Of a DNA stretch of 64,000 bases, positions 10,017 to 64,000 are shown one piece after another. This DNA is from an uncultured Verrucomicrobiota bacterium (GTDB lineage: Bacteria > Verrucomicrobiota > Verrucomicrobiia > Limisphaerales > J093): positions 108,974 through 172,973 of the forward strand of contig CAYPNF010000005.1 in the NCBI GenBank assembly GCA_964411985.1, given 5' to 3'. A program made the position numbers and the translations under genes. The notes under the pieces are model-generated. The model did not search any database. It saw only the letters and a list, made by a program, of their open reading frames with translations, and was not told where the DNA came from. Positions within the stretch are counted from its first letter, which is position 1. Every line of letters begins with the position of its first letter.

Positions 10017-10017
10017 A

Positions 10018-18210: not shown

Positions 18211-18294
18211 CGCGACCCCCTCCAGTTCCAGCGCAACAGGTTTATCATCAAACATCCAACCACGTCCAACTAACCGAGTTACTAACCTCTCGCC

Positions 18295-19170: not shown

Positions 19171-19199
19171 CCTGTGAGGGTCCCCTCTGGACTAACGCT

Positions 19200-20249: not shown

Positions 20250-20269
20250 CACAAAGGAGTAGCGCATCT

Positions 20270-21538: not shown

Positions 21539-21541
21539 GCC

Positions 21542-24370: not shown

Positions 24371-24479
24371 CGGTGGAAAGCGCACCGTGGCGGCACCAAA
24401 TGATCTCCAACGCTGGGAAATGGTGACGCTGCGAGCGGAATTGTGAGAGTGGACCTATGACGGGCAAAAGTAAGAACTT

Positions 24480-45269: not shown

Positions 45270-45289
45270 CCCGCCCCCTTCGGGTGGAT

Positions 45290-45628: not shown

Positions 45629-46097
45629 ACTTCACACAAGTCGCTTTTCAAATTCTACCTGCATCCCTGGCCCGATCTTTGGGCCAATCAAAGTGTAAGA
45701 ATGCCTGATATCAATAATTAAGTACACTGCGGTCCGCATTTTGGCAAGCAGACATTAAGAGTCTTCTTAAGTGTGTTCCGTGTGAACTAGGTATAATGTA
45801 ATATATTGTCCGTAAGATAGTTAAACTAGATTCTGGCCCTCCAAGGACTATCAAAGAAAACATTCTTGCGTGGGAAACTTACTCTTTGGCTAGCAAATGT
45901 CTGGCGAGGATTCCCCCCTGCGGTGAGGTCGCTTGGAAAGAGAAACTATGATGAACATGAAGGAACAGGAAGAGGGTTCTTCTTCATGCATCATCATGAA
46001 CTTCACGGTGAACTCCCTTTTCTCTTGCTCTAGCCGCAGGGACATCGTAAGTAAGTCACCACTCTTCGCGCCCTTCTGGCGTAGGGAGGTGGTGCAA

Positions 46098-46182
46098 GCC
46101 CGCGTGGCGGAATTGGCAGACGCGCTAGATTCAGGTTCTAGTAGGTAACACTGTACAGGTTCAAGTCCTGTCGCGGGCACCA
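46098..46182 (+). tRNA. tRNA-Leu (anticodon CAG), CCA encoded
   Basis: Cloverleaf folded by hand. Acceptor GCCCGCG/CGCGGGC; anticodon stem CTAGA/TCTAG; loop TTCAGGT (CAG with G37); 13-nt variable arm; T-arm ACAGG-TTCAAGT-CCTGT; A73; CCA. Confidence 0.9.
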
Positions 46183-46769
46183 TCTTTCTTCATCAGGAAT
46201 GGTGTTCGAGGCACGGGCTCGGACTAAGAATCCTGGACTATGCAGACTCGCGTGAGTTCAGTCGAAAAGGTGGAACCCTCAACGATGTTAACCACCCTGA
46301 AGGAGTACGGAGTGAGCCAAGATTTCACTATTCAAGGGGATCTAAGCTGGGAAGCTTGAGTACCGCGAGGGTTGGATATGGGGTAACGTGTATCTGCGCG
46401 CGTTGCGGAGGCAACTGGAGACCTGCATCGCCAAGAATCTTGGCTCCCGCCATTTGGAGGATACCAAGCACCGGGCGGAGTTGCGCAAAATCAAGAAGGA
46501 GATGGCAGGGCTGAAGAAGAAACTGTCTGCGCTTCAGGTCCGAAAGGCTCAGTTGGCGCGAGAGACCGGAAAGTAGCTGATCACGTCCGATCTGTTGCCG
46601 GTTCGAGAAACAGTTCAACCTTAGGCCGAACGGGGCCTGAAACGTCGCAGGTTAGGACTGTCCCGATGATGTTGAGGGCGTAGGCTCCCCTGACTCGGAA
46701 CTTGGGTATCGCAGGCAGTGTTTGAGGAACGGGGGGGACGCCTGCGGCCGGCGACCTTGTCTTCCATCG

Positions 46770-46935
46770 CAAACTATTCCTTGGCTCCATCGATTTGCTT
46801 CGGGCTTGCATGCAGGGACCCCTTTTTGCGGTCTCACGAGTCCAAACTCAGTTTGCCAGAGTGATGGCCACCAACATCAGGTCTGGTCGCCACGACGATC
46901 ATGGTTTTCATCAGGGTGAAAACCCTGTTCCTGGA
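46770..46935 (-). pseudogene. Decayed 5' fragment copy of the type IV pilin-like gene at 47186..47560
   Basis: ~75% nucleotide identity to the first ~150 nt of the intact pilin gene (gttttcaccctgatgaaaaccatgatcgtcgtggcga vs ggcttcaccctggtggaaatcatgatcgtcgtggcga). Translation gives a corrupted FTLMKTMIVVATR class-III signal followed by a stop; no intact ORF. Confidence 0.45.
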
Positions 46936-47120
46936 CGGTTTGATTCTCAGCTTGTGCCCTTGTGTTACTGAGTTGTTGCTGCTGTCGGGCGAGTTGAACC
47001 TCAGGGGATGATTGGTGATTAGGTGCCAACCTCCATCCGCATGATTCGTCACAGGTCGAATTGAGCCGAAACCCTGTCCCTTCGATTGTTTTGAGAAATG
47101 GCGGGGGGATGGCAGACCTC

Positions 47121-47148
47121 AAAAAGAAAAGGGCCTCAATCGAGGCCC
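47121..47148 (-). terminator. Rho-independent terminator of the pilin-like gene
   Basis: On the minus strand: GGGCCTCGATTGAGGCCC hairpin followed by TTTTCTTTTT, 40 nt after the pilin stop. Confidence 0.6.
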
Positions 47149-47185
47149 TCCTGTTCTTGAGCAAAGGTTGCTGAAAGCATCGTTC

Positions 47186-47560
47186 TTACGGTGCCGGTGC
47201 CGGAGCTGCAGCTGCAGCGCCACCAGGAAGGACGTGGTTAGCCACGTCACACGTGGGATCCGCTCCCAGGACTCCGGGAGTGTATTTGCCGCCCGCTGGG
47301 CAGGTAGGCACAACGCCATTCTTCAAATAGTTCGCGTAGTTAGGAACGGCTACCCCGTTGGCAATCTTCTCCTCAAGACCGCACTGCTCTTTGGCGCCAT
47401 CGATTTGTTTAAGGTTTGCTATGCAAGCATTCTTTTGGGCCGTCTGGCGAGCCTTGACGAAGTTCGGCAAGGCAATTGCCGCAAGCAAACCAATGATCGC
47501 CACGACGATCATGATTTCCACCAGGGTGAAGCCCGCTTTCTTGGAGGTGTTAATCTTCAT
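47186..47560 (-). CDS. Type IV pilin / type II secretion pseudopilin-like protein (prepilin-type N-terminal cleavage/methylation domain)
   Basis: MKINTSKKAG|FTLVEIMIVVAIIGLLAAIALPNF is the class III signal with Glu+5. Cys pair in the C-terminal half; Ala/Pro-rich tail; SD AAGGA 8 nt upstream. Confidence 0.8.
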   Translation of the reverse strand: MKINTSKKAGFTLVEIMIVVAIIGLLAAIALPNFVKARQTAQKNACIANLKQIDGAKEQCGLEEKIANGVAVPNYANYLKNGVVPTCPAGGKYTPGVLGADPTCDVANHVLPGGAAAAAPAPAP

Positions 47561-47958
47561 GCTTTTCCTTTATAGTTATAGGTTGTTGTTACTCGCTTAG
47601 CGGTGTGAACCCCTATGGAGAGCTTCTGATTATTGCTTTTCTCGGTTCACGCATTGCTATCCACAGACCGCACTCTATCCTCTAAGCATTGATTATGCCA
47701 CTAAGGTGCTGAACTTTCAATGGATTTTCTTTGGCTCTGTAAGTAACTGTAAGCAAAAATGTTGTGATGTTATTGGTGTTGAACTGGGTAGGCACTGGCT
47801 AAGTGACTCTGCAGAAAGTGTCCAACTTCTAGGCACAAAATGCCTTAATTCTTTTTAGCGAGCCCAGGTTTGTATCGATGGGTCTAGACCGTTATAGAGC
47901 GACTTGAGCCCTGGATTTTAGATGATTTCCAAAATGCCGATAACTAAGGTGGTCTGAT
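47561..47958. promoter_or_regulatory. AT-rich divergent intergenic region between the pilin-like gene and the GT-C-like membrane protein gene (probable divergent promoters)
   Basis: ~400 nt markedly AT-rich relative to the ~60% GC surroundings, with no ORF of substance; inferred only from composition and gene arrangement. Confidence 0.3.
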
Positions 47959-49500
47959 ATGTTGACTAAGGATGAATCGGTTGGGGAGCCGCTCCCGGGT
48001 TCGCCGCAGCACGCGTGCGATGAACGCGACCGTTTGGCGAGGCTCTTGATATGGGCGATAGCCTTTTTAGTGTTACTATTTTCAATCCTCAAAGTCGTCA
48101 TGCTTGGCTATTTGCCAATTGATGATGCTCTGAGGTATGCAGCGCGAGCCGTGGCTGGCAAGAGTTGGGACCAGATCCTCGTGCTGCGTCCCGATGCCCC
48201 ACTCGATCATAACCCAGGATGGAACTTGCTCCTTGGAGGAGTTCATAGGGTCGCGAATTGGAATCAGGACGAGCTGGTTACGGGCAGCGTGGTTTCTCTC
48301 TTCTGCCTCTTTTGTGTTTCACCGTTGTTTCTCTTTCGACGCCCGGAGGCTTGGATCACGTCGTTGGCCATCAGTTGCCTCACTCTGGGCTTTGCTGATC
48401 GGATTACTATTGGCCGGCCTTTCCTAATTACCATGGCATTCTCGGTTTTTGTTTTGGTGCTTTGGGGGCGTACTGAAGCAAAGAACTGGAGGCTTTGGGG
48501 CATTACTACCTTGGGCTTTGCCGCAACTTCCTATTTTCACGGTAGTTGGTATCAGAGCGTTCTGTTGGTGGGCGCGTTTCTCTTATCGGGCCGAGTGGCA
48601 CGATCGATCGAATTGGGCAGTTGCTGGTTGGCTGGGAGTTTGGCTGGTGCCGTGTTTACCGGGGATCCAGTTCGCTACCTGGCTGATGGCGTGAGTATTG
48701 CTTTCAGTTCAGCGACTACGGCTCCTGTGGCCCGGTTGAACGTGATCGAGCTTCAGCCTTCGGGTGGGGTTTTCATTGCCGTGATCATTGTGATCCTCAT
48801 CCTGGTGGTCCGTAGTATGCTTGGTCTGAAGCCCACAGATGTGTTAAGGGATCCCGCTTTCATCCTGGCAGTAATAGGCTGGTTGCTGGGAATGAAGATT
48901 CTCAGATTCTGGGTCGACTGGGGCATGGTGGGTTTCCTCGTTTGGATGACGTTTCGTCTGGAGGAGATCTTCGACGCGATTCTCTCGGGCTCGATCAAGC
49001 GGCGACTTGCTGCTTGTTGTTTCCTCTATATGACCTTCTTTCTGACCCTGACTGGTGATACTGGAGGACGGTGGTCGAGCGCGCTTACCTGGGAGTTTGT
49101 TGAGGAGAAGAATCCGGAGTTAGCGGAATGGATCCCTCAGCCGGGGGGCATCGTCTACACTGCGGACATGATTCTCTTTTACCGCACCTTCTTCAAGAAC
49201 CCTCATGCCCCTTGGCGTTACATCCTCGGTTTTGAGTGTACTTTCATGCCAAAGGAGGACCTTGAGGTCTACCGGAAGATTCTTTGGAATTTCGGGACTC
49301 ACAAAGCCTACGCGCCTTGGGTAGCCAAAATGAGACCCGAAGACCGGCTTTTCATCCGGGCCAATTCTGGGGCGCAGCCTCGAATATCGGAGTTGGAGTG
49401 GTACTACGCTGCTACTGATACTTGGATCGGTCGCTTGCCCCGGGGGGCTACCTCAGCAGGCCCTGCGGCTACCCCCGCTTTGGCACCCGCAACCAAATAG
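47959..49500 (+). CDS. Polytopic membrane protein, probable GT-C-fold glycosyltransferase (ArnT/GtrC/PMT-like)
   Basis: 513 aa with ~11-13 TM helices. Asp-Asp motif immediately after TM1 in the first external loop (LGYLPIDDALRY). Followed by a polyprenyl-phosphate-sugar-type GT2. Confidence 0.65.
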   Translation: MLTKDESVGEPLPGSPQHACDERDRLARLLIWAIAFLVLLFSILKVVMLGYLPIDDALRYAARAVAGKSWDQILVLRPDAPLDHNPGWNLLLGGVHRVANWNQDELVTGSVVSLFCLFCVSPLFLFRRPEAWITSLAISCLTLGFADRITIGRPFLITMAFSVFVLVLWGRTEAKNWRLWGITTLGFAATSYFHGSWYQSVLLVGAFLLSGRVARSIELGSCWLAGSLAGAVFTGDPVRYLADGVSIAFSSATTAPVARLNVIELQPSGGVFIAVIIVILILVVRSMLGLKPTDVLRDPAFILAVIGWLLGMKILRFWVDWGMVGFLVWMTFRLEEIFDAILSGSIKRRLAACCFLYMTFFLTLTGDTGGRWSSALTWEFVEEKNPELAEWIPQPGGIVYTADMILFYRTFFKNPHAPWRYILGFECTFMPKEDLEVYRKILWNFGTHKAYAPWVAKMRPEDRLFIRANSGAQPRISELEWYYAATDTWIGRLPRGATSAGPAATPALAPATK

Positions 49501-52290: not shown

Positions 52291-52336
52291 GCCCGGTCTG
52301 TGTTTTCCATCAAAACGCAGGCCGGGTTTTTCTTTC
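52291..52336 (+). terminator. Intrinsic terminator after the DUF481 gene, potentially bidirectional for the convergent VWA gene
   Basis: gcccggtctg...(loop)...caggccggg stem followed by tttttctttc. Confidence 0.5.
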
Positions 52337-52366: not shown

Positions 52367-55237
52367 CTACTGATTCATCTTCTTGGCTGCTCGCTTCTTG
52401 GCGTCCAGCAACCGGCTCGCAGTGGCAACCGGTTTTGGAGCAGGCCCAGCGGTTTTCGCCGTTTCTGACTTCTCCGTAGACCCAGCCTTGGCCTTGGCGA
52501 GTTGGGCCGTGGACTCGCCCTTGGCCGCTTCCACGTTCGCTCCTTCGCTTGCCGGACGGGTGGAGCGCACTTGGTTACGGGTGGCCAGCAGTGCCGTCAG
52601 AGACTCGGTGGATTCAGCCACCGTTTCGGAACGCCGCCAGAAAAAAAGACGCCGACGCACCAATACAGCTACCCGCGACCACTCCTCCCGGTCGAGGAAG
52701 ATCCGTCGCACCGCCACGTCCAGCACGAACAGCACCACCGCAAACTTAAGCAGGCCTTCCCAGAGATCGCGAGGTTGGTAGGTCTTTTGGCGATCGTGCA
52801 GATAGGGGTTTGGAGGCTCCCCTGATGGCGTCCCCATCGACAGAACGCGGCCTCCTCCGGACTCAGCGACCTGTTGCAGGAGGCTATGATTGGGCTCCGT
52901 GGTGCTGAACTCTGGCGAATAGCTGACGGCTGCCCCGACCGACTGGGCCGCAACCGTTTGTCCGTTGCGAATCTCAGCTACATTGAGCAGATAGGCTCCT
53001 ACCTCCGTGGCAGGGAACCTGGCTTCGTATCGTCCTGGCCCTGTCTGCTGAAGCCGAGCCGTGATCCGTTCGCCTTTGGGGCTGACCACAGCGGCCTGCA
53101 AATTCAGGAAACTCCGATAATTGCCCTCCGCATCCATGGCTTCGACCGTGAGAACTCCTTCGCCTCGGTCAATGCTCACCTCCGGGTTCAGGTCTGCCGT
53201 GTCGACTCGCTTCAGCGACCACCTGGCGGTCTGCGACCAAAACTGGCGGTACTTCTCCCATGCCACCCAATCCGCGGCCCATCGGGCTTTGGCGTCCGAG
53301 GTGAAAGCAACGGAGCGACCCAACCCATACTGCCAGTGGGCGAGGACCGGGTCCCCGTTCGGGGAGAGAAGAGGCACTTCGGCCCGTCCCTTGGGTGTGG
53401 CGCACACATATCCTTTGAGTTCTGGATACTCGGAGGCAGAGATGCCGCGAACCAGTTCCGTGGTCGCGGCCAATTGCGGACGGAACGGCTCTTCAAAGAT
53501 GGCCGACTTGAGAATCACCATGGCCTCTTTAATGAAGATCTGGGGCAGGCTTCCCGGGTCTCGTACATCATAGAATCGCCCTCGGCCCTGTTCCGCGATC
53601 CGGATCATCGTTTCTGGCCCAGCGTGTCCAGAGATCAGGACGGTACTGACGGTGATGCGGTCGTTCACGATCGCCTGCATCAGCTCTGAAGTGGGTGGTC
53701 CGGGGTCCCCGTCGCTGAACACGATGATATGCTTTAGGTTCGCAGTCGATTTCTTCAGCCCTTCGTGCGCCATTTCCATCACATGTTGGAAGGTGGGCAG
53801 GTCGCCCTGGTTCATGCCAGAGATTTGCCGGCCGAGTTCTTTCTTGTCGCCAGCTTTCGTCAAGGGGAAGAGCCATCGGTCCGTTCCATCCCAAAGAACC
53901 ACTCCCAGTTCGTCCTGAGGGCCAAGGGCGTCGAGAGCCGCCAGGGCGGTTTCCCGGGCCACCTGGTTGCCGTTGTTGAATTCCATGCCATGCATGATCA
54001 GGGCGAGCGCTCCGCTGGGCAGAACCTTCTTGCTGTTGAGTTCCATGTCGACCGGGAGCGCTTTCTCCAGAGGTGTGCCTCGATACGCCCCGGCCGCATA
54101 CGCTTGATCACCGCCGATGCACACGAGGCCTACCCCAAAGTCCCGGACCGCGCTTTCCAGCAACCGCATGAAAACCTCACCCAGGTCGCCCGCCGCAACG
54201 TTGCTGAGGAACACGGCGTCGAAGCTCTGGATCTCAGCGAGCGAACCCGGGAGAGCGGTGGCATCGACCGCCTTGACTTCCAATCGGGAGGCACGAAGTG
54301 CATTCACCAAGGGCGCGTCTTGCGCGGGATCGGACGAGAGAAGCAGGATGCGCGGGTCACCTCGGACGGCGGCGAAAGTCGAGGCTCGGTTGTTCTGAGC
54401 CACAGGATCGCCTGGGGCCTCCAGTTGCACGTCGTAGCTGTAAAATCCGGCTTCGGTGATGGTTTGTGGGAGAGCGAAGAGGTTCTTGCCTGCACTCAGT
54501 TCCACCGGCTGTTCCCCGAGGAATTGGTTGTTACGAAAGAACCGCAGTTTGGCGCTCCGTGCCCGGTCTGCCTGGGCCAGAATCCGCACCTCGAATGCCT
54601 GCCCGCGTTTGAGCTTGGGGGGGATGGTAAGCTTCTGCAGAGAGACATCCCCGCTGCGGCTGACCCCGAGAGGCACGACATCGAGCGAGACGCCAAGAGT
54701 CCTGGCAGCCGCCATGGCGCTGGCGACGCTTCCGGCGTTCTCGTTGCCATCCGAGAGCAGCACCAGTCTCTTCTGACCCGTCTCGGGAAAGGCTGCACTT
54801 CCCAGGCGCACGGCCGAGGCCGCGTCCGTTCGTTCCCCGCCGATCACCGCCTGGACCTTCTGCACGTCCACGCGCGGGCTAGCCGCACTCTCGATGCTGG
54901 CTCCGTTGCCGAAGACAATCACCCCGCCTTTGTCGATGGTCTTCTTCTTCGCGGAGGCCTGGTTCACATACTCCCGCGCCTGCTCTTGCTGGGTCGTGGG
55001 GATGCTGTCAGAGCGGTCTAGCAGGAAGAAGACCGTCATCCCTTCCAGCGGTTTCAGCCATTGCAGGCCAGTGAGGGCGAGCGCGAGACAAAGGGTGACC
55101 ACCAGACGAACCACGAGCGCGGCCCACTTTCGAACCGGAGTGAGCTGAACATCCGAAGTTCTGCTGAGCCAGACAATCCAGGCTACCGCCAGCGGCAGCA
55201 GGACGATCCAGGCGGGGTTGGTCAGCTGAAACTTCAT
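52367..55237 (-). CDS. Large BatA/BatB-like membrane-anchored VWA-domain protein (~956 aa), last gene of the MoxR operon
   Basis: Start chosen at MKFQLTNPAWIVLLPLAVAWIVWL (BatA_N-like), forming an ATGA overlap with the upstream gene; the ORF tool start is 55390. VWA MIDAS-like LLDRSDS. Lys/Ala-rich C-terminal tail. Confidence 0.75.
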   Translation of the reverse strand: MKFQLTNPAWIVLLPLAVAWIVWLSRTSDVQLTPVRKWAALVVRLVVTLCLALALTGLQWLKPLEGMTVFFLLDRSDSIPTTQQEQAREYVNQASAKKKTIDKGGVIVFGNGASIESAASPRVDVQKVQAVIGGERTDAASAVRLGSAAFPETGQKRLVLLSDGNENAGSVASAMAAARTLGVSLDVVPLGVSRSGDVSLQKLTIPPKLKRGQAFEVRILAQADRARSAKLRFFRNNQFLGEQPVELSAGKNLFALPQTITEAGFYSYDVQLEAPGDPVAQNNRASTFAAVRGDPRILLLSSDPAQDAPLVNALRASRLEVKAVDATALPGSLAEIQSFDAVFLSNVAAGDLGEVFMRLLESAVRDFGVGLVCIGGDQAYAAGAYRGTPLEKALPVDMELNSKKVLPSGALALIMHGMEFNNGNQVARETALAALDALGPQDELGVVLWDGTDRWLFPLTKAGDKKELGRQISGMNQGDLPTFQHVMEMAHEGLKKSTANLKHIIVFSDGDPGPPTSELMQAIVNDRITVSTVLISGHAGPETMIRIAEQGRGRFYDVRDPGSLPQIFIKEAMVILKSAIFEEPFRPQLAATTELVRGISASEYPELKGYVCATPKGRAEVPLLSPNGDPVLAHWQYGLGRSVAFTSDAKARWAADWVAWEKYRQFWSQTARWSLKRVDTADLNPEVSIDRGEGVLTVEAMDAEGNYRSFLNLQAAVVSPKGERITARLQQTGPGRYEARFPATEVGAYLLNVAEIRNGQTVAAQSVGAAVSYSPEFSTTEPNHSLLQQVAESGGGRVLSMGTPSGEPPNPYLHDRQKTYQPRDLWEGLLKFAVVLFVLDVAVRRIFLDREEWSRVAVLVRRRLFFWRRSETVAESTESLTALLATRNQVRSTRPASEGANVEAAKGESTAQLAKAKAGSTEKSETAKTAGPAPKPVATASRLLDAKKRAAKKMNQ

Positions 55238-57642
55238 GACTGGTTTCCTGATGCGATGGGTTTGCCGTTTGCCACTCCTGCTGGACGCGTTGACCCGGAG
55301 AGAGGGTGGCGCCGGGTCAGCTTTTGTACTCGATGGTTTCCCGCGTCCGCGACGTAGAGGTTGCCGCAGGAGTCCAGGGCGACGCCCCACGGGTTGCTGA
55401 ACTCGCCCGGGGCAGTCCCGCGGCAGCCGATGATCTCGCTGCTTTTTCCCCGCGTATCGAAAACCTGGATGCGGCTGTTGCCAAACTCACAGACGAATCG
55501 CATCCCGGTCGCATCGATTTTGACATCGTACGGGTACCCTAATTGGCCGATCCCAGAACCGGGTTCGCCGTAGCTCTCGACCGCTTCCAGCGTTGGGGAC
55601 AGGATCTGGATCCGGTGGTTGCAGGAGTCCGCCACATGAAGATTACCTTGGGCATCCAATCCCAGACCCTCCGGACGGTTAAACTGCCCCAACTCCTTGC
55701 CGTAGGTTCCAATCGACTTGACCCAGTTCGATCCTCCGGCCGAGAAGAGTTGCACCCTCTCGACGACTCCGTACTCGCTCAGGAAAGTCTGGCCTTGTGG
55801 GTTGACCGCGATGGCGCGCGGAAACGAAAGTTCACTCGAATTGGTGCCCTTGCGTCCCCACTGGTGCAGTAAGGTTCCATCCCTCGCATAGGAATTGACC
55901 CGCGAATAGTGTGGCTCCAACACCGTGATCCGACCGTCCTGATCCAGGCACATGCCTTTCGGTTTGCCCAGATCGGTCTGGGGGAGTTGCCACGACTTCA
56001 GGAAGACGCCCGTCGAGGAAAACTTCTGAACCCTTCCGGTCATGTCCACCACATAAAGATTGTCGTCGGCGTCGACTGTGACAGAGCGAGGCTTGTTCAG
56101 TTGGCCGGGATTCGTGCCACGCGAACCAATGACGTCGACCCGCGCGAACAAAGGATCATTCAACTCCCGGGAACTTGGGCTCTTGGGGGAACATCCTGGC
56201 AGTAGAAGACAAAGCGAAACTCCTCCCAGCACCACGGATCTCCTGCCGAGCCAGCCGCTGCCGCTGAGTTGTCGTCCCAACGCTCCCCAGCCCAGGTAGA
56301 GGATTGCGGGAACCATGGCCAACCCCACCAACCAGAGGGTCAGGGCGGTGATCTCCGGGTTGTGGCCGTAGTGGAGAAGGTTGAAAATGCGCAGCGAGGC
56401 GGTCTCGATGCCTGGGGGAATGATGAGCAGAAGGGTCTCCAGATCCCAGAGACAGAGCAGGTAGGTCGCGTACCAGGCGGCGCAGACTTGCGGCAGGATC
56501 TGAGGCCATTCTGCATGCCTGAACACGGTCCAGCGGTGGGAGGTCTCCAGGTGCACCATGTCCGTCAAGGCTGTACCGGCCGACCTTCGAGCCAGGGAAC
56601 TCCCGCCCCAACCGACCACGAAGTAGCGCAGGCACAACGCCAACACCACGATGATGGGGCTGGAATACAGGAGCCCGGTTAGGTCGTGGTTGAAAACGAG
56701 AATCATCGCGAGTCCGATGAGCACTCCGGGGGTGAAGAAGGGAATCCAGACCCACCACCCCAGCCTTTTTCGGTGAAACAGCAGGCCACCTGCAGCGCTC
56801 AGGCTGGCTACGGTTGCGCCAAAGAACAGCGACCAGCCCAGCGTGGGAGCGGAGGCATGGAAGGACGAGACCAGCGAACTTCCCGAAACAGATCCCCAAA
56901 GGAGAAAGACGAGCGGAACGGCGGCAGCCAAGGCAAACGTTATGGCCGTTGTGGCGCGGCAAAACCACAAGAGCGCACTTCCCAGCCGTTGTCTGAAAAC
57001 CTCGTAACCAGCCGTCTTTACGGGCGGGTAGTGGAACTCGCTGGTACTGAGCCACCAAACGCCCGCCAGTGGCAAGAGGATCATCGGGATGGCCGTCTGC
57101 ATGGCTGCCATGTAATCCCAAGTCGTGCTAAACCGGACGTAGAACTCGGCTGGGAAGACCTTCACCTGGAGAATGGACGGTATGGTGAATTGGTTGAACG
57201 TGAGTACAAAAACCACCAAGCCCGAGTGGAGCAAGCCAGCTTTAGCGGCTGGCCAAAGGAGGTGTTGAGCCAGCAGTCCTCCGGACAGGTCGGGTTCTGC
57301 TTCCAAAAGTGAGTTGCCCAGCCGCATCAAGGCCCCTGCGACGGCGAAAGCCGGCAAAGGCCAGTAAAGCAGGGCCAGTAGCCAGGAGGCACCTCCCAAA
57401 GAGTAGATGGAGCAGGGGATGATGCCGCGCAGACTTCCCTCATGGCCGAGCAGGGCCAACCAACAGTCAGCTACGAGAAACGGGGGCAGCATCAGGACCA
57501 GAATGGCCGTCATCGTGAGGAACCTGCGGAGCCTGGGCCCAGACGCCAGCCAGCAAAGCGCTGCTATGCTTCCCAAGGCCAGCGCACCGGTAGTGGCGAG
57601 CAGACTTGAGGCGAGTGAGTTCAGTAGCAGGCTCCAGCTCAT
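55234..57642 (-). CDS. Fused double ABC-transporter permease (FbpB/ThiP-like, ~12 TM) with a C-terminal six-bladed NHL-repeat beta-propeller
   Basis: N-terminal 470 aa contain two permease halves (~12 hydrophobic helices). C-terminal 330 aa carry six NHL repeats: LNKPRSVTVDADDNLYVVD, FPRAIAVNPQGQTFLSEYG, FNRPEGLGLDAQGNLHVADSCNHRIQIL, FSNPWGVALDSCGNLYVADAGNHRVQKL and two more. Confidence 0.75.
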   Translation of the reverse strand: MSWSLLLNSLASSLLATTGALALGSIAALCWLASGPRLRRFLTMTAILVLMLPPFLVADCWLALLGHEGSLRGIIPCSIYSLGGASWLLALLYWPLPAFAVAGALMRLGNSLLEAEPDLSGGLLAQHLLWPAAKAGLLHSGLVVFVLTFNQFTIPSILQVKVFPAEFYVRFSTTWDYMAAMQTAIPMILLPLAGVWWLSTSEFHYPPVKTAGYEVFRQRLGSALLWFCRATTAITFALAAAVPLVFLLWGSVSGSSLVSSFHASAPTLGWSLFFGATVASLSAAGGLLFHRKRLGWWVWIPFFTPGVLIGLAMILVFNHDLTGLLYSSPIIVVLALCLRYFVVGWGGSSLARRSAGTALTDMVHLETSHRWTVFRHAEWPQILPQVCAAWYATYLLCLWDLETLLLIIPPGIETASLRIFNLLHYGHNPEITALTLWLVGLAMVPAILYLGWGALGRQLSGSGWLGRRSVVLGGVSLCLLLPGCSPKSPSSRELNDPLFARVDVIGSRGTNPGQLNKPRSVTVDADDNLYVVDMTGRVQKFSSTGVFLKSWQLPQTDLGKPKGMCLDQDGRITVLEPHYSRVNSYARDGTLLHQWGRKGTNSSELSFPRAIAVNPQGQTFLSEYGVVERVQLFSAGGSNWVKSIGTYGKELGQFNRPEGLGLDAQGNLHVADSCNHRIQILSPTLEAVESYGEPGSGIGQLGYPYDVKIDATGMRFVCEFGNSRIQVFDTRGKSSEIIGCRGTAPGEFSNPWGVALDSCGNLYVADAGNHRVQKLTRRHPLSGSTRPAGVANGKPIASGNQS

Positions 57643-57643
57643 T

Positions 57644-58609
57644 CTATCTTACAAAAAGGGTCTCAAGTTTCGTGGTTGTATCCACCAATTCCTTCGCGAG
57701 GTCGGTTAACAGTCGGTCCCAGTCGGTCTGCAGCGTCGCTTGTCCCACTCGCGAGGGATCCTCTCCCTCCAGTGCATCGGCTTTCACCAAAGCCTGGAGC
57801 GTCGATGACGAACGCAGGAATTCCGCTAACCGCTCCGCTTCGGTCGGGTGGGGACACCGTGCGACGATCCCCACGCTGTTCCGAATGAGAAGCATCTCCT
57901 CGCTCAGATCCAGGATGGCTATGGGGGCTCCACGGCGAAGCTGCCCTAGGGCGTCGTCGGAGTCGGTTAGGCCGATCCAGGCTTCCCCGGACGCGACCAA
58001 CTTGGCAACCACGGAATTCCCGTCCACCACCATGACCTTGTTGATGAGAAGGTCTTGGCACCAGCGATGCCAGCGCTCCTCACCCCAGCGTTGGTGGAGG
58101 GCTGCGAAGTGGGCTGCGGTGGTCCCAAACACGGGATAAGCCATCGCGACCTTGCCGCGCCAGGCGAACTGGGTGAGGTCCGCCAGAGAGCGGGGGGCCT
58201 GTGTTGCCTGGAGATGGTTGGTGTTGTAGATCAGTCGGCGGCTCCGGTACCCAACGCTGAACCATCCGTTGGTTTCGCGGAAAACTCCTGCCGTCGCGAG
58301 TTGCCTCGTGCGCAGCTCTTCGTTGCTCCAGAAGACGTCGCACTGCGGGCGTGCCTTCTCCGCCAGTAACCGGTTGGCCAGGCCGACGGTCTTCACTGCT
58401 TCGCTGTCGTATACCGCGCGCACTTGGATTCCGGTTTGTTCGGTGAACTTGCGCAGGAGGGGCTCGGCAAAGACCTGGTCCTGGGAAGTGTAGATCACCA
58501 CTTGGGGAGTCGGAGGAGCACAGCCGAACAGGGCCAGCACCAGGCATAACAGAGCCAGGAATCCGTGCAGCGGATGCCAAGTTCGTGGTGATGCAGGAGG
58601 AGGGCGCAT
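57644..58609 (-). CDS. ABC transporter periplasmic substrate-binding lipoprotein (FbpA/ThiB/PotD-cluster, iron(III)/thiamine-type)
   Basis: Lipobox LALFGC at the internal Met start; the ORF tool start 58675 overlaps the upstream gene. Type II SBP pattern. Confidence 0.7.
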   Translation of the reverse strand: MRPPPASPRTWHPLHGFLALLCLVLALFGCAPPTPQVVIYTSQDQVFAEPLLRKFTEQTGIQVRAVYDSEAVKTVGLANRLLAEKARPQCDVFWSNEELRTRQLATAGVFRETNGWFSVGYRSRRLIYNTNHLQATQAPRSLADLTQFAWRGKVAMAYPVFGTTAAHFAALHQRWGEERWHRWCQDLLINKVMVVDGNSVVAKLVASGEAWIGLTDSDDALGQLRRGAPIAILDLSEEMLLIRNSVGIVARCPHPTEAERLAEFLRSSSTLQALVKADALEGEDPSRVGQATLQTDWDRLLTDLAKELVDTTTKLETLFVR

Positions 58610-58619
58610 GAGGTGTTGG

Positions 58620-60461
58620 TCAGGCGGTTCGTCGGTGGTAATACCACCATTCCCACAAAAGCAGGGCAAAGGCACCCAGGGCCGCCCATCGCCATAGCTC
58701 GCGGCTTGCCGACGCCTGCCGGCTGGCTGCGACTCGCGTATACCGTCCCAGCTTGATCTCCGCTTGGGGTGTTGTGTCCGTCTCCGGCGCGTCCAGGAGG
58801 TTTACACAAAACTTGGCTTGGTTCGTTCCGGCAGAAAGTTCGTAGATCCCGCAACGCAAGGTGTCACCGAACACGACCTCGCGATCGCCCAAGAGCGCTG
58901 GTAACTCCTGCGTTGGCCCGGTCCCCCGTCGCACGCTGGCAGTCTGAATCGCAGTCCCGGCCGGTATCTGCAGGCGCAACGGGTCACCCGCTTTGACCAT
59001 CGAAGCAGACGATTTCGCGCCCGCCGGATTCAGCCACTCCAGAGCGTTGGCGATGAAGATGGGGAAGGAAACCCGGAGCGGCCAGGTGCTCTGCAACGGG
59101 TCGAACGCCAGCCAGATCAGGCGTCGTCGCGCTTGCTCCCCGGCAAGCAGAAGGGGTGCGTTCTGGCCGTCTACGATCGATTGCCCCCAACCGGGAGTCT
59201 GCGCAGCCAAAGCCTCGGTGATTTGCACATTCTCCAAACCCACAAATCGCAGGATGGGGTGCGTGGTGTTCCAGTCCACAATGGAGGGAGACTCTACCTT
59301 GCCTGTCACGGTCAGCCAGTTGGTCTGGCTCCCGCGCACCGCCAGCAGATTTCCGGTGGGCCAAACCAGAGGCGGAACGTCGTCCAATACCACGATGTCC
59401 ACATCGGGCGAAGCTTCAGCGAGATCCGGAGCCACTCCGAGCTCCACCCTGGGCGCCGAGGTCAGGGCTTTCTCGAGAAAACGGTTGCCCTTCGTAACCA
59501 GCAGCACGCGGATCGGTTGAGGCAGCAGGCTTTGAATGGAGACTTCATTATCCACCGCCAGGTCGTCCTCCAGATTGAGGCGCAACGTGAATACTCCATC
59601 CTGGTCTTGCGCCACCGTGAAGACTTCGCCTGAGGTTTGCCGTGCCTTCAGTTCCACCCCACGACTGCTGATAAAGCCTCCTTCAAAATGGAGTTCGAGG
59701 GTGCCGGCCAAGTCGTTCGTCGAGGCGTTGAAGAGGTTGACAAACACCGCGCGCCGGCTGGGATCGTCGGGGTGCGCACGAACATCCAAGTTCACGATTC
59801 CCGCGTTGCGCGCGGCTTTGCCGGAGGCATGGTAGATCAGGTTCAAGTTCTCGTTTTCGAACTCCGTGAGTGCCGGGAATGCGCCGTCACTGAAAAGGTG
59901 AATCTCCGCCTCGCTCCGGTCCTTCACCAAAGACAACGCCAGTTTGAACGCATCCACCAGCCGGGTGGGGCCATCGGAAACCGTGCAGGCATCGAGGGCT
60001 CTTTTCAGTGCCACCTTGCTGCCAGTGGGCGACTGCATGACCTGGGTCTGCGGACCCGCAAGCAACACCACCATCTGGTCACTATCCTGAATGGACTGGG
60101 CCAGTTGGGAGGCTTCGGCTCGAGCCTTTTCGAACCGGGAAGGGGACTCATCCTTGCTCTGCATGGAGGCGGAGCCATCGAGAATGACGACCAGCAGTCG
60201 GCCTATTGCGGTCTTACTGGAGAGATAGGGACGCGCCAGTGCCACGACCGCGAAAGCAAGCAGGAGAATCTGGAGCACCAGCAGCCAATTGTGCCTCAGT
60301 TTTTGGAACGGAGCGCTCGCCTGGGTCTCCGCCAGAAACTTCTTCCAGAGGAGCGTGCTGGGGACAAGTTTCACCACCCTTTTGCGCTTCAGCAAGTAGA
60401 ACAGGATGACCACGGGAATCGTGGCCGCAAAGAGGAACGCGACTGGAGCAAGGAAGCTCAT
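58620..60461 (-). CDS. BatA-like aerotolerance-related membrane protein (BatA_N domain + VWA-like region)
   Basis: MSFLAPVAFLFAATIPVVILFYLLKRKR...LLVLQILLLAFAVVALARP matches the BatA N-terminal two-TM signature. Confidence 0.8.
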   Translation of the reverse strand: MSFLAPVAFLFAATIPVVILFYLLKRKRVVKLVPSTLLWKKFLAETQASAPFQKLRHNWLLVLQILLLAFAVVALARPYLSSKTAIGRLLVVILDGSASMQSKDESPSRFEKARAEASQLAQSIQDSDQMVVLLAGPQTQVMQSPTGSKVALKRALDACTVSDGPTRLVDAFKLALSLVKDRSEAEIHLFSDGAFPALTEFENENLNLIYHASGKAARNAGIVNLDVRAHPDDPSRRAVFVNLFNASTNDLAGTLELHFEGGFISSRGVELKARQTSGEVFTVAQDQDGVFTLRLNLEDDLAVDNEVSIQSLLPQPIRVLLVTKGNRFLEKALTSAPRVELGVAPDLAEASPDVDIVVLDDVPPLVWPTGNLLAVRGSQTNWLTVTGKVESPSIVDWNTTHPILRFVGLENVQITEALAAQTPGWGQSIVDGQNAPLLLAGEQARRRLIWLAFDPLQSTWPLRVSFPIFIANALEWLNPAGAKSSASMVKAGDPLRLQIPAGTAIQTASVRRGTGPTQELPALLGDREVVFGDTLRCGIYELSAGTNQAKFCVNLLDAPETDTTPQAEIKLGRYTRVAASRQASASRELWRWAALGAFALLLWEWWYYHRRTA

Positions 60462-60468
60462 GCCCGGA

Positions 60469-61362
60469 TCAGCCCAGCACCTCCGCTTCCCGAAAGCGCC
60501 GTAGCAACAAGTCCTCCAGAGCGGTCGATGAACTCACCATGAAATGACCCGCTCCCCGCGCACCAGCGTAGTCCCTCAGCTCTCCCACAAACTGCTCCAA
60601 GGTCTGGAGATAGGCTTGAAGTCGGAATTTTCCAAAGGTTAACTCCTGCTCGAAGCCGGTCTCCGAATCCACCAATTTCAGGTCCCCGTACGTCGATGGC
60701 TGGAGCTCTTCGGGCGAAAGTACCTGAACGAGGGTCACTTCGCTGCCGCGGGCCAGCAGCGCTTTGAGGCCGGCCTGATAGCCCTCGGGATCAAGAAAAT
60801 CACTCAGGACGATGGATACCCCGGTGCGGCGCATTTGCAGGGCGCCACGACGCAGGCACTCGCCGATCCCAGCCGCCCCGCCCGCTCGGAGCTTTTCCAG
60901 ATTCTGGAAGAACCGGAGCGTCGATCGTTTTCCCCTGACCTGGCGTAGTTCGGCCTGCGCCAGTGGGGGGATGGCGGTTGTGGGGAAAGGGACTACGCTC
61001 ACTCGGTCAAAACTGCAGAGGGCGACATATCCGATCGCTGCCGCGAGCCGACGGGCAAAATCGAACTTTGAAGGTTCCCCAAATCCCATCGATTCGCTGC
61101 AGTCCAGGAAGAGGGTCACTGGCAGTTCTCTCTCCTCCTCGTAAAGTTTGAGGAACAGTCGGTCGAGCCGGCCGTAGAGGTTCCAGTCCAGGTAACGCAG
61201 ATCGTCCCCGGCGACGTAGTTGCGGTAATCGGCAAACTCTACGGAGTGTCCGCGCGCACGGCTTCGCCTCTCCCCCTTGGCGGAGGTTTTGGTTCTACGG
61301 GCTGCCAGCAGTTGGCACTGCTCCAACTGGCGCAGCAGCGAAGGAGGGAGCAGAGCGCTCAT
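60469..61362 (-). CDS. DUF58-family protein (MoxR-associated, VWA-like)
   Basis: GHSVEFADYRNYVAGDDLRYLDW...ELPVTLFLDCSESM is the DUF58 signature. ATGA overlap with the MoxR stop. Confidence 0.85.
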   Translation of the reverse strand: MSALLPPSLLRQLEQCQLLAARRTKTSAKGERRSRARGHSVEFADYRNYVAGDDLRYLDWNLYGRLDRLFLKLYEEERELPVTLFLDCSESMGFGEPSKFDFARRLAAAIGYVALCSFDRVSVVPFPTTAIPPLAQAELRQVRGKRSTLRFFQNLEKLRAGGAAGIGECLRRGALQMRRTGVSIVLSDFLDPEGYQAGLKALLARGSEVTLVQVLSPEELQPSTYGDLKLVDSETGFEQELTFGKFRLQAYLQTLEQFVGELRDYAGARGAGHFMVSSSTALEDLLLRRFREAEVLG

Positions 61363-62408
61363 GCGACCGTCTGCGCCTTGGCCGCCGGCACTTCACGCGG
61401 AACGAGCTTGAGAATCTCCGCCGCGACGTGGTCTGAAGTGATTCCCTCCGCTTCGGCTTCAAAATTGACCAGCAACCGATGCCGCAAGGCTGGCAGTACC
61501 GCCACCTCGATGTCCTCGAAACCTACGTTGAATCGTCCCTGCGCCAGAGCTCGCACCTTTCCTGCCAGGATCAGCGCTTGCGCCCCACGCGGACTGCTGC
61601 CAAACCGGAGGAACTGATTGACCATGGGCAACGCCGTCGCGGTTTTGGGGTGGCTCGCCAGAACCAGGCGAACGGCGTAGTCTTTGACGTGCGAAGCCAC
61701 CGGCACTTCCCGGACCAGCCGTTGGAGCTGGATCAGTCGGTTCCCGTCAATGATCTTTGAGATTTGGGAACGCACGTTCTCGGTAGTGCGGTTCAGTACC
61801 TCGGTCAATTCTGAAGCGCTGGGATAGCTGACCACCAATTTGAAAAAGAAACGATCCAACTGCGCCTCTGGCAGGGGGTAGGTTCCCTCCTGATCGATCG
61901 GATTCTGAGTGGCGAGCACGAAGAACGGTTCGGCAAGCTTGCGCACTTCGCCCCCCGCCGTGACGCTGTGTTCCTGCATCGCTTCGAGCATGGCGGATTG
62001 CGTCTTGGGGGTCGCGCGGTTGATTTCGTCCGCCAGGATCAGATTGGCGAACACCGGGCCGCGCTGGAACTGAAACGCCCTTCCGCCTCCCGGGCTTTCC
62101 ACCACCATGTTCGTTCCCAGGATGTCCGCTGGCATCAGGTCCGGGGTGAATTGAATGCGGTTGAAGGACAAATCCAGGACTTCGCCCAAGGTTCGCACCA
62201 AGAGAGTTTTTCCCAATCCTGGCACGCCCTCCAGCAGCACGTGCCCCGCCGCCAGGATCGCAGTGAGCGTTCCGTCAACGATCGATTCGTGCCCGACAAT
62301 CACCTTGGCGATTTCTTTCCGCAGATCCTCGTACGTTACGCGAAACTGGGCAATTTCCTGCTCGGTACTCATGTTTCCTTTCGATTCCTTACTTCTTGAG
62401 GTCGTCAA
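61359..62408 (-). CDS. moxR: MoxR-family AAA+ ATPase
   Basis: Walker A GVPGLGKT; Walker B LLADEINRA; sensor motifs of the MoxR subfamily. ~349 aa. Confidence 0.9.
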   Translation of the reverse strand: MTTSRSKESKGNMSTEQEIAQFRVTYEDLRKEIAKVIVGHESIVDGTLTAILAAGHVLLEGVPGLGKTLLVRTLGEVLDLSFNRIQFTPDLMPADILGTNMVVESPGGGRAFQFQRGPVFANLILADEINRATPKTQSAMLEAMQEHSVTAGGEVRKLAEPFFVLATQNPIDQEGTYPLPEAQLDRFFFKLVVSYPSASELTEVLNRTTENVRSQISKIIDGNRLIQLQRLVREVPVASHVKDYAVRLVLASHPKTATALPMVNQFLRFGSSPRGAQALILAGKVRALAQGRFNVGFEDIEVAVLPALRHRLLVNFEAEAEGITSDHVAAEILKLVPREVPAAKAQTVA

Positions 62409-63981
62409 AGTATTCTTTCACTGCGTTTTGGTAGGCCCGGGGCACCTGATCCTGGCTCAAGGCGCTCTCCGCTTCTGTCTGAGCTGCACTGACCGCCTCT
62501 TGAATCACGACCGTGCTCTGTCCCTTTAGGCTGACACCCCTGAGGGTCACACTAGGCATCTGCCCCCCTGGGGACATCTGCCCCTTGAGCCTCGTCGGGA
62601 CAATGCCTTCAGGCAGCTTGCCTTCCCCTCGGTCGGCGAGCCCTTTGGCCTCCGCGTCCTGACGTTGCACGCCGCTATTGTCCCACATTTCCGCCTCCGT
62701 CGGGGGTTCCATCCAGAGCGACTCATCAGCCCAGGTCCCCACGCCCTTGCCCGGTTTTCCCCCCTGCTTACCAGAGCCACCCGGTCGTTGAGCCATGGAC
62801 CAGCCACTCCCATTCCCGAGCCCAGCTTGGGCCTTCCCCAAAGCCTGAAGCGCCGACTGGAGATCCTCCATGCCAGCCATCTGTTCCTGCAGCTCATCCA
62901 ATTCCTTCGCAGCCTGCTGCATAGAACTACCGGATTCCGTCTTCTGACCTTGCCGCAACTCCCTCAACGCCTTCTGCAGCTGATCGGAAACCTTGCCGTA
63001 GTCCTTCGCCGGGCCGATTGCTTTCTCCAGTTCCTGCTCCATCTTTTTCAATTGCTCGGCCGAAGGGGTGCCTGACGTGAGTTGCTTGGCCATCTTACGC
63101 AGCGTCTCCGCTGCCGGGGCGGTTTGCCCTCGCTCCAACTGCTCGGACAGCGTTTTACCCATGGCCTGAGCCTGTTGCTGCATTTTTTGTAGTGCCTTGG
63201 TCAGCTCCATCATCTTGGAAAGATCCTGGTCTGAGGCCTCCAAATTCTTGAGCACCTGGTCAATTTTCGCGGTCTGGAAAGACTCCATTGCCTGTTCCAG
63301 GCCATCCAGCGGAACATTCAGCCCCTGCGCTTGTTTTGAAAGGTTCGACAGCGCTTCCGAGAGGGCCTGTTTCTGCTCCGGGGTGGCGGCGGGACCTTGC
63401 GCGAACATTTGTGCCGCAGCCTCCCTGGCTTTCTGCAGCGCCTGTTCTAGTTTCTGCAGCGCTTCGGGAGCTGGAGATTTTTCTCCGAGCTGCTTCTGGA
63501 GCGCCTCCATCTGTTGCTGCAACTGCTCTGGGCTGGTTGTCTGCCCAGGGGCGCTGCTGCGCGCCATCTTCTCCAGATTCCGCAAAGCTGGGTTCTGGGC
63601 CAGGTTTTTGGCCTCCTGCCGAATCCTGTCTCCTACCTTTGCCAGTTCCTTCAAAGCTTCCTGCACAGCGGGTGGTTGGCGGCTCAATTGCGCACCCAGG
63701 TCGCCCACCGCCTTCAGAGCCTCTTGAGCCTTTTCCAGCGATGGAGACTTCCGTTCCGGGATCTTGCGCACTACTTCGACCAGTCCCTTCCCCACCTCCC
63801 GCACTTGCTCTTTTCCCTTCTCTTTCTGCTGATGAGCCTTGGATCGGTACTCAGGCGCGAATCCCACTGCGAAGGCCAGGGTGAGCAAAAGGAGCACGTA
63901 CCGGCTGCAATGGGGAAGAGAGAAGGGTAAAAGGTGCCCGGCCGGTTTGGCCTTGAGCTGGTTGGAGGCGTCCAACACCAC
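62389..63981 (-). CDS. Membrane-anchored Gln/Ala/Lys/Glu-rich coiled-coil protein (hypothetical) leading the MoxR operon
   Basis: N-terminal hydrophobic anchor (YVLLLLTLAFAVGFA), ~350 aa of heptad-rich low-complexity sequence, and a Gly-rich C-terminal region. 20-nt overlap with moxR. The start Met is 20 nt from the window edge, so the true start could lie outside. Confidence 0.55.
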   Translation of the reverse strand: MVLDASNQLKAKPAGHLLPFSLPHCSRYVLLLLTLAFAVGFAPEYRSKAHQQKEKGKEQVREVGKGLVEVVRKIPERKSPSLEKAQEALKAVGDLGAQLSRQPPAVQEALKELAKVGDRIRQEAKNLAQNPALRNLEKMARSSAPGQTTSPEQLQQQMEALQKQLGEKSPAPEALQKLEQALQKAREAAAQMFAQGPAATPEQKQALSEALSNLSKQAQGLNVPLDGLEQAMESFQTAKIDQVLKNLEASDQDLSKMMELTKALQKMQQQAQAMGKTLSEQLERGQTAPAAETLRKMAKQLTSGTPSAEQLKKMEQELEKAIGPAKDYGKVSDQLQKALRELRQGQKTESGSSMQQAAKELDELQEQMAGMEDLQSALQALGKAQAGLGNGSGWSMAQRPGGSGKQGGKPGKGVGTWADESLWMEPPTEAEMWDNSGVQRQDAEAKGLADRGEGKLPEGIVPTRLKGQMSPGGQMPSVTLRGVSLKGQSTVVIQEAVSAAQTEAESALSQDQVPRAYQNAVKEYFDDLKK

Positions 63982-64000
63982 CAGATCCCGCCAAGGGCTC

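Follow-up and report, generated by a model that had tools for sequence, protein, structure and literature searches.

Why should genes for a substrate-binding protein (SBP) and a double permease of the ATP-binding cassette (ABC) importer kind lie inside an operon for a MoxR ATPase and its VWA partners, and what would power an importer module whose ATPase gene never accompanies it? This question is raised by a stretch of 64,000 nucleotides from an uncultured Verrucomicrobiota bacterium (Limisphaerales; contig CAYPNF010000005.1 of assembly GCA_964411985.1), here called the window, in which seven open reading frames (ORFs) on the minus strand run from position 52367 to the window end. Bat-type membrane sets of MoxR, DUF58 and VWA proteins are widespread, and we know of no client for them outside the maturation of methanol dehydrogenase. 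In Limisphaerales/Pedosphaerales-type Verrucomicrobiota, which are common in soil and fresh water, we find order-wide retention of a candidate partner within such an operon, namely an ABC-type permease that bears a tethered propeller, has its own SBP and is translationally coupled to a VWA protein. We tentatively favor the explanation, to which we give somewhat less than an even chance, that this module is a binding-protein-dependent transporter with its ATPase encoded elsewhere, physically integrated with a Bat/Mxa-like MoxR-VWA envelope machine and serving a substrate other than classical Fe3+.

The ORF list together with Pfam and NCBIfam domain calls bears out the seven genes and the domains that a first-pass annotation of this DNA had assigned to them. 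In order of transcription they encode a coiled-coil protein (cc), MoxR, a DUF58 protein, a BatA_N/VWA protein (BatA-like), the SBP, a permease fused to an NHL propeller (permease-NHL) and a giant VWA protein. With start codons chosen by homologue alignments, cc and MoxR are separated by a gap of 16 nt, MoxR and DUF58 share an ATGA overlap (-4 nt), 7 nt lie between DUF58 and BatA, 10 nt between BatA and SBP and 1 nt between SBP and permease, and a second ATGA overlap (-4 nt) joins the permease to the giant VWA gene. The two overlaps and the 10- and 1-nt gaps had been given correctly by the first-pass annotation, but its 20-nt overlap of cc with MoxR and its 8 nt for DUF58/BatA had not. The ATG start of MoxR is backed by a 333-aa homologue in a related locus (L001); the alternative TTG would add 12 residues. 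A search for internal promoters or terminators that might set the transporter genes apart detected no sigma-70-like promoter across 51.5-64 kb and 17 terminator-like sites, which is no excess over the 13.5 +/- 3.7 found in shuffles. Because of this tight co-directional packing, the two ATGA overlaps and the want of any promoter- or terminator-like break, we read the genes as a single unit, and they are likely to form one transcript, as had been proposed. The only strong hairpin (52291..52327; 16 pairs, 8 of them G-C) sits just past the last gene, between the convergent ends of the cluster and of a gene for a DUF481 outer-membrane protein. It probably ends transcription of the cluster; its T-run is on the plus strand, and its effect on the minus-strand transcript is to that extent presumed. 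At the other end, cc is the first conserved gene of the cluster in relatives. When upstream ORFs of 34 loci were clustered, no conserved gene was found 5' of cc, and a longer operon reaching upstream of it was thus ruled out.

The arrangement is not peculiar to this organism. A scan anchored on BatA, which used a profile from 11 closer BatA sequences and one genome per species, returned 80 Verrucomicrobiota loci (Limisphaerales, Pedosphaera and "subdivision 3") at 46-61% identity, of which 59 were long enough to judge and 58 could be judged on the upstream side. The full order BatA-SBP-permease/NHL-giant VWA is present in 40 of the 59. Partial forms comprise BatA-permease/NHL-giant VWA without the SBP (7/59), BatA-SBP alone (3/59), BatA-SBP-permease without NHL (2/59) and the module with the VWA gene missing (1/59); in one locus BatA is followed directly by the giant VWA gene, and in five by none of the module or VWA genes. 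At least one ABC-type gene therefore adjoins the BatA-like gene in 53 of 59 genomes (40 with the full order and 13 partial). On the upstream side, cc-MoxR-DUF58 occurs in 30 of 58 loci and DUF58 only in 21. A reciprocal metagenome scan anchored on permease-NHL gave 71 loci, and in 68 of these the giant VWA gene lies directly 3' of permease-NHL, most commonly through a 4-nt ATGA-type overlap (offset -3). The conserved adjacency spans 40-60% protein identity over about 130 loci, and the cluster follows vertical descent within a single bacterial order and is not patchy. Thus the SBP/permease insertion, which the first-pass annotation had proposed to follow through related genomes, is conserved there and not accidental, and since the arrangement recurs in well over a hundred related genomes the cluster is probably one functional unit, its job as yet unknown.

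Outgroups indicate how the arrangement came about. In one (L031) two BatA_N/VWA genes are adjacent with nothing between them, in another (L162) the BatA_N/VWA parts are fused into a single protein of 1473 aa, and on a third outgroup contig a 1003-aa protein with BatA_N, VWA_2 and further VWA domains directly precedes a separate VWA/GATase1_like gene, so that the fusion breaks at a different point. Because the VWA parts are adjacent or fused in these three loci, the ABC module is a clade-specific insertion in the operon that has been retained since. Partial clusters keep varied pairs, for example DUF58-BatA-SBP, DUF58-BatA-SBP-permease and BatA-permease/NHL-VWA. The first of these forms is seen in three complete Limisphaerales/Pedosphaera chromosomes (L064, L075 and L081, at about 9000-12800), where the operon is reduced to DUF58-BatA-SBP; the loci of about 22 kb contain no match to permease, NHL, giant VWA, MoxR or cc, and no permease gene occurs in the 9-10 kb after BatA-SBP.

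Residues 1-455 of the 802-aa protein form a fused double permease (56278..57642, minus strand) composed of two type-I ABC importer transmembrane domain (TMD) halves with 12 transmembrane (TM) helices. Pfam matches to ABC permeases in the two halves are weak, and NCBIfam matches to PhnV, PhnU2 and PotC all fall under cut-off. The permease profile aligns along its two halves with a solved iron ABC transporter permease (9j4r_A, E 8e-16) and with PotC (E 1e-14), and the aligned region includes the P-x-G-x-x-T-L pathway segment as well as the two EAA coupling loops. Among 134 family members, EAA loop 1 (at 57277-57306 in the window protein) keeps Glu in 92%, Gly in 97% and Pro in 100%, and EAA loop 2 (56539-56565) reads D/E-A-A-R-L-x-G-A, with Gly in 99%, Ala in 89% and Pro in 96%. 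We tentatively read the protein as a real transporter because it matches the solved permease and PotC over the coupling loops and conserves the EAA residues, and this family-wide conservation argues for an ATPase partner and for real transport.

The two TMD halves account for the double permease of the first-pass annotation, which however missed what follows them. Past residue ~455 the protein continues with a basic loop, a 13th hydrophobic helix (56191..56247, minus strand) that ends in the lipobox LLPGC with Cys484, and a C-terminal beta-propeller of six NHL blades and a short tail (55234..56190, minus strand; blades at about 55318-56106). Cys484 is invariant in the permease-NHL alignment, and a Cys follows the hydrophobic segment in all 113 NHL-containing ORFs, with LAGC, LTGC and LSGC as the commonest boxes. 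In one relative (L090) the NHL protein is encoded by a gene separate from the permease and has its own lipoprotein signal peptide ending in FALPGC. This split gene and the conserved lipobox together lead us to conclude that the fusion carries an internalized lipoprotein signal peptide, which raises the general question of whether such a peptide, placed after twelve TM helices, is still lipidated and cleaved. From its sequence the propeller is predicted to be periplasmic and tethered by this peptide, and it is possibly lipidated or even cleaved off. The NHL assignment itself is supported by Pfam (96 bits, plus an SGL match) and by profile matches in PDB to the NHL domains of TRIM71, TRIM2, Brat and PknD, with E down to 1e-65; an NCBIfam ScyF-like model scores 150.8 bits, under its cut-off. 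By sequence the domain is thus similar to NHL domains that bind protein or RNA (TRIM71, TRIM2 and Brat) and to the sensor domain that PknD exposes outside the cell, and its repeats follow a generic structural consensus, with no recognizable catalytic or metal site in the alignment and PDB profiles.

The SBP (57644..58609, minus strand) is a lipoprotein of 321 aa with a lipobox LFGC at 58520-58531. The first-pass annotation had called it FbpA/ThiB-type, and the FbpA half of that label holds. The protein matches SBP_bac_11 in Pfam at 65.9 bits, and its AlphaFold2 predicted structure (pLDDT 92) is matched by Foldseek with probability 1.0 to FbpA, HitA, FutA, AfuA, P5PA and MctA at 17-22% identity, which places it in the FbpA/AfuA-class fold; in a profile comparison with PDB, VmFbpA (7w3w) is found at E 1e-18. 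The ThiB half is not supported, since NCBIfam sfuA (the ThiB/SfuA thiamine family) scores 30.4 against a cut-off of 93.4. Nor do phosphonate models fare better, with phnS2 at 53.7 against 392.75 and PhnS at 24.1 against 395.3. The family to which the SBP belongs is well conserved, with 55-64% identity among the best 120 matches and one close relative at 89%.

An acidic motif, TDSDD, lies at 57953-57967, and in a profile alignment its Asp218-Asp219 stand opposite the Tyr-Tyr pair of VmFbpA (7w3w). All 110 family members recovered from related loci have T-D-x-D-D where ferric-binding proteins have N-N-Y-Y, and Asp218 and Asp219 are invariant in the family alignment. Because the Tyr-Tyr ligands (Tyr195/Tyr196, H. 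influenzae numbering) are replaced, the protein is FbpA-like in fold but no tyrosinate Fe3+ binder, and an Fe3+ importer was rejected on this ground. The SBP pocket was read from alignments only. What we take to be the anion site of H. influenzae FbpA (Arg101, the N-terminus of the Ser139-Ala141 helix, and Asn175) would match Arg122, Gly162, Thr164 and Asn198 of the SBP, which are invariant, and Thr163, which is nearly so (at least 90%). The pocket would therefore combine retained FbpA-type anion-binding positions with the universal carboxylates Asp44, Asp216, Asp218 and Asp219, and such an acid-rich pocket suggests a cation, a metal-anion complex or a zwitterion resembling an amino-phosph(on)ate as a ligand that would fit. 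Additionally, Rfam scans of the window and of six complete related clusters detected no thiamine pyrophosphate (TPP) or other riboswitch. With no riboswitch and with ThiB/SfuA far under cut-off, a thiamine or riboswitch-controlled vitamin importer was rejected as well, and the metal/vitamin-type importer of the first-pass annotation is not supported by the Asp-Asp replacement, the low NCBIfam scores or the riboswitch scan.

The first-pass annotation had also remarked that no ATPase gene accompanies the transporter, and this is borne out well beyond the locus itself. Neither a motif scan nor jackhmmer, started from a genuine ABC nucleotide-binding domain (NBD), found an ABC ATPase within the 64-kb window, and none adjoins the module in 161 related loci with flanks of up to 10 kb; ABC ATPase-like ORFs occur in 7 of these loci, in no case beside the module. 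Among the best 120 permease homologues the ABC_tran domain is absent. These searches led us to reject an ATPase hidden nearby.

The remaining five proteins would make up the machine into which the module is inserted. The cc gene (62389..64000, minus strand) encodes a membrane protein with a long predicted periplasmic coiled coil and a conserved C-terminal region, and its 5' end is cut by the window edge. Its frame is open from 63981 up to base 64000, with no in-frame stop, and at 48% identity the fragment covers residues 111-643 of a homologue that is 643 aa long; the gene is consequently truncated by about 110 codons, and the GTG at 63981, where the first-pass annotation had begun the gene, is an artifact of the window edge and not the true start. 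Full-length homologues have an Arg-rich N-terminus, 3 TM helices, about 480 residues of coiled coil and the conserved C-terminal region, and by the positive-inside rule the coiled-coil part would be periplasmic. In Pfam, cc matches no family and gives only weak coiled-coil or BAR-like hits. The C-terminal region (62389-62800, and orthologues) is well conserved (GKPGKGVGTWAD ... VPRAYQ-x-AVK-x-YFDD-x-KK) and is likewise without a Pfam family.

Two proteins would act from the cytoplasm. MoxR (61359..62372, minus strand; 337 aa) is a cytoplasmic MoxR-type AAA+ ATPase with AAA_3 (PF07726) at 208.8 bits against a cut-off of 27, AAA_lid_2 (PF17863) at 51.3 bits and bpMoxR at 43.7 bits; its Walker A (GVPGLGKT) and Walker B (LADEINR) motifs are both intact, and it shares about 75% identity with orthologues of related loci. 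The DUF58 protein (60469..61362, minus strand; PF01882, 102.9 bits) is its cytoplasmic VWA-like partner, with an intact metal ion-dependent adhesion site (MIDAS) motif DCSES at 61090-61104, and the D.S.SM motif is kept in 98 of 98 orthologues.

The two VWA proteins are predicted to lie in the inner membrane. The BatA-like protein (58620..60461, minus strand; 613 aa; Pfam BatA_N and VWA_2) has 2 TM helices with a conserved Lys/Arg-rich loop, a periplasmic VWA domain, beta-sandwiches, a GATase1/ThuA-like domain and a C-terminal TM helix. Its MIDAS reads DGSAS (60165-60179) and is kept in 127 of 130 orthologues; a search with the protein gives over 2300 cluster representatives at E<=1e-30. The giant BatA_N-like protein (52367..55237, minus strand; 956 aa; Pfam VWA twice and GATase1_like) consists of 2 TM helices, VWA1, a second VWA, GATase1_like, an Ig/filamin-like domain, a C-terminal TM helix and a basic tail. 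In all orthologues the N-terminus gives a weak match to the BatA profile. VWA1 has the MIDAS motif DRSDS at 55004-55018, kept in 93 of 94 orthologues; a reading of the second VWA sequence finds no D-x-S-x-S motif. PDB sequence matches are to GATase1-like 3soz and 2gk3, with BatB 3ibs marginal. A link of GATase1_like to GldG/ABC_transp_aux is at most a tentative lead, since Pfam at E<=10 gave no such match. In one distant lineage (L164, 9129-13459), DUF58 and BatA-like genes are followed directly by an ABC ATPase (ABC_tran) and an ABC-2-type membrane protein (ABC2_membrane), which is a second and different type of ABC transporter adjoining BatA.

All of these parts are of known kinds: a MoxR-proper ATPase with DUF58, BatA/BatB-type anchors, an FbpA-class SBP, an FbpB/PotC-type permease and an NHL propeller. 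What is new is the combination, with the module between VWA genes and never with an ATPase gene, the NHL propeller on a buried lipoprotein signal and an Asp-rich SBP pocket; literature searches gave no description of this gene association. The likeness to Bat/MRP sets lies in the MoxR-DUF58-BatA/BatB core and in the double-TM BatA_N anchor joined to a VWA domain. Thus MoxR, DUF58 and BatA_N/VWA are present as the first-pass annotation had said of its Bat-like set. In contrast to Bat sets, however, none of the seven proteins has a Pfam match to the TPR domains of BatC/BatE or to BatD, the VWA proteins far exceed theirs in size and include GATase1-like and Ig-like domains, the first gene encodes a 3-TM coiled-coil protein, and SBP and permease-NHL lie between the two VWA genes. 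The FbpABC, AfuABC, PhnSTUV, PotABCD and ThiBPQ importers share the FbpA-class type II SBP fold and a permease like the fused one described here, which aligns with 9j4r_A and PotC. They differ from this locus, which has no ATPase gene in or near the cluster, Asp in place of the Fe3+ Tyr ligands, NCBIfam matches far under cut-off, and a permease with an extra helix, a lipobox and an NHL propeller. In importers of the OpuA/GlnPQ type a binding domain is fused to the permease via an extra TM helix. The fusion described here is similar in that an extracytoplasmic domain is placed on the TMD C-terminus through an additional signal-anchor-like helix, but it brings an NHL propeller instead of an SBP fold, the SBP has a separate gene, and the linker holds a complete lipobox with an invariant Cys.

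The closest functional parallel is the mxa cluster. There MxaR (MoxR), MxaS (DUF58/VWA), MxaA, MxaC, MxaK and MxaL are all needed for insertion of Ca2+ into periplasmic methanol dehydrogenase, and MxaJ, which has an SBP fold, is a chaperone that acts on the propeller subunit of this enzyme (PMC12276312). The statement of the first-pass annotation that MoxR/VWA sets take part in metal insertion is thus established for MxaRSACKL (PMC12276312). The uptake-and-maturation unit that it had suggested for the cluster described here is a hypothesis. Like the cluster described here, this gene set combines MoxR, DUF58/VWA and VWA proteins (MxaC, MxaL) with an SBP-fold protein and a periplasmic beta-propeller (PMC12276312). 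The likeness covers MoxR, DUF58 and a pair of membrane VWA proteins, all encoded together. The two differ in that here an ABC permease bears the propeller, which has six NHL blades, and the SBP is FbpA-class; function is carried over by analogy only. No PQQ dehydrogenase domain was found in Pfam scans of the cluster and of 15 other window ORFs.

From these comparisons we propose that a Bat/Mxa-type MoxR-VWA envelope machine may have acquired, between its two BatA_N/VWA genes, a module of the type-I ABC importer kind. The machine would comprise five parts: the 3-TM coiled-coil protein, cytoplasmic MoxR, its cytoplasmic DUF58/VWA partner and two inner-membrane VWA proteins whose VWA/MIDAS and GATase1-like domains are predicted to face the periplasm. 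The module would add three more, namely a lipoprotein SBP, a fused double permease and a periplasmic NHL propeller on an internalized lipoprotein signal peptide, and the solute that it imports would not be Fe3+ held by tyrosinates. Permease-NHL and the giant VWA protein would be made in a fixed ratio and probably form a periplasm-facing complex. More broadly, the BatA_N/VWA pair and the coiled-coil protein may constitute a periplasm-facing complex that carries the transporter, which MoxR-DUF58 might assemble, metal-load or gate from the cytoplasm via the conserved BatA_N loops. Permease-NHL and the giant VWA protein thus offer a concrete, testable pair for the function of MoxR-VWA machines.

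A number of observations weigh against this proposal. The permease of the window is an outlier in its own family: loop 1 is kept, loop 2 reads DMVHLETS with the Gly and both Ala gone, and the TMD forms a long branch (40% mean identity to the family against 51% within the family), so that transport may be impaired in this organism. The ATPase is assumed to be encoded elsewhere in the genome, our searches having covered the window and the 161 loci, and topologies were assigned from hydropathy and the positive-inside rule alone. MoxR and cc are missing from the neighborhood in 21 of 58 loci, and the module is therefore linked more tightly to DUF58-BatA-VWA than to MoxR. The SBP is missing from at least two or three sub-lineages that keep permease-NHL, having been lost in one larger clade and in one or two smaller ones, and 6 of 59 genomes have no ABC-type gene adjoining BatA; the coupling is therefore not obligatory. 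Finally, one ORF joins the BatA-like protein to permease-NHL (L063, 4927-9003) and another joins permease-NHL to the giant VWA protein (L119, 5032-10602). As natural fusions these ORFs would support the proposal, but they may be assembly errors.

Some of these points suit a different explanation, in which the cluster is an Mxa-like maturation unit that transports nothing. The TMD would then be an anchor or platform, the NHL propeller a client or an integrin-like partner of the VWA/MIDAS domains, and the SBP a (metallo)chaperone comparable to MxaJ, with MoxR as the sole ATPase needed. The lack of an adjoining ABC ATPase in all 161 loci would follow naturally. The Mxa system indeed has an SBP-fold protein that binds to a propeller enzyme of the periplasm, and its Ca2+ insertion depends on MoxR, DUF58 and VWA proteins (PMC12276312). 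The NHL domain is also better kept than the TMD, since relatives share 51-63% identity with the window protein over the former and 30-45% over the latter. The degenerate EAA loop 2 of the window fits as well, and so does the behavior of the SBP, which is dispensable in some lineages and stands beside BatA with no permease in the following 9-10 kb in the three complete chromosomes. A mere anchor is hard to square, however, with EAA and pathway motifs conserved as strongly as Gly at 99% and Pro at 96-100%. Furthermore, in two marine lineages the permease lacks the NHL domain altogether, and the NHL repeats show no recognizable catalytic or metal site. We therefore regard a maturation unit as unlikely, while giving it more credence than the explanations that follow.

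A more conventional possibility is that the module is an ordinary nutrient importer (for example of aminophosphonate, polyamine, metal-chelate or sugar-phosphate) that relies on a shared multitask ATPase and is merely co-transcribed with the MoxR-VWA genes. The SBP fold and TMD motifs are canonical, and the cluster is modular, with parts found without others. Shared ATPases encoded apart from SBP and permease genes are established for other ABC families; for example, MsiK-type ATPases serve actinobacterial sugar importers from genes located away from those of the SBP and permease. Yet the module lies internal to the operon, flanked by genes that one outgroup has fused, and the permease/VWA junction is the most conserved one of all (68/71) and usually overlapping. 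Simple co-transcription also does not lead one to expect an adjacency kept over 40-60% protein identity in about 130 loci, an NHL lipoprotein that belongs to no described importer, or BatA-SBP pairs that persist without a nearby permease gene. We consider this explanation rather improbable.

In our judgment doubtful to a slightly greater degree than the ordinary importer is the idea that the permease has no NBD of its own and is assembled, gated or energized by the MoxR/DUF58/VWA machine, with the tethered NHL propeller either metal-loaded or engaged in an integrin-like propeller-VWA head. If this is true, no membrane client of a Bat-type system would have been defined before this permease, and its coupling would be new for an ABC-type permease. 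The strict form of this idea, that MoxR replaces the ABC ATPase and drives or gates the permease via DUF58 and the BatA_N membrane proteins, draws its sole support from the consistent absence of an ABC ATPase gene and the equally consistent presence of DUF58/BatA beside the module. It is very improbable, as 21 of 58 loci have no MoxR gene in the neighborhood, the EAA loops retain the canonical shape onto which ABC nucleotide-binding domains dock, and literature searches gave no precedent, nor do we know of one.

Least likely of all is a MoxR-vWA-beta-propeller ternary conflict or defense system (bpMoxR, PF20030), which has the same three component classes and a weak bpMoxR Pfam match in its favor (43.7 bits, far exceeded by AAA_3), but which differs in MoxR subtype, propeller type, membrane/periplasmic setting and phyletic pattern: here the propeller is of the NHL kind, forms one polypeptide with a permease and is predicted to lie in the periplasm, PADLOC returned only coiled-coil noise, and the cluster is inherited vertically within one order.

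The other genes of the window have glycan-degradation and housekeeping functions that bear no relation to the cluster. Nearest to it, on the plus strand, are an ORF of 513 aa with no Pfam match (47959-49500) and, 3' of this, genes for a GT2 glycosyltransferase, a methyltransferase and the DUF481 outer-membrane protein, which run convergently towards the cluster end. A group of secreted glycan-related proteins (13237-26321, plus strand) includes an FGE-sulfatase/PA14/BNR protein (13237-16035, plus strand), two BT_1020-like propeller and sialidase-like CBM proteins (16252-18210 and 24480-26321, plus strand) and an ORF of 942 aa with no Pfam match (21542-24370). A GH38 alpha-mannosidase is encoded at 33677-37204, and a hybrid histidine kinase of 1489 aa with PA14, HisKA, HATPase_c and two receiver-domain matches occupies 40800-45269 (plus strand). 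The kinase gene is followed by about 2.7 kb (45270-47958) that has no ORF of at least 150 aa and contains the one match of the Rfam scan of the window, a tRNA gene at 46098-46179 on the plus strand.

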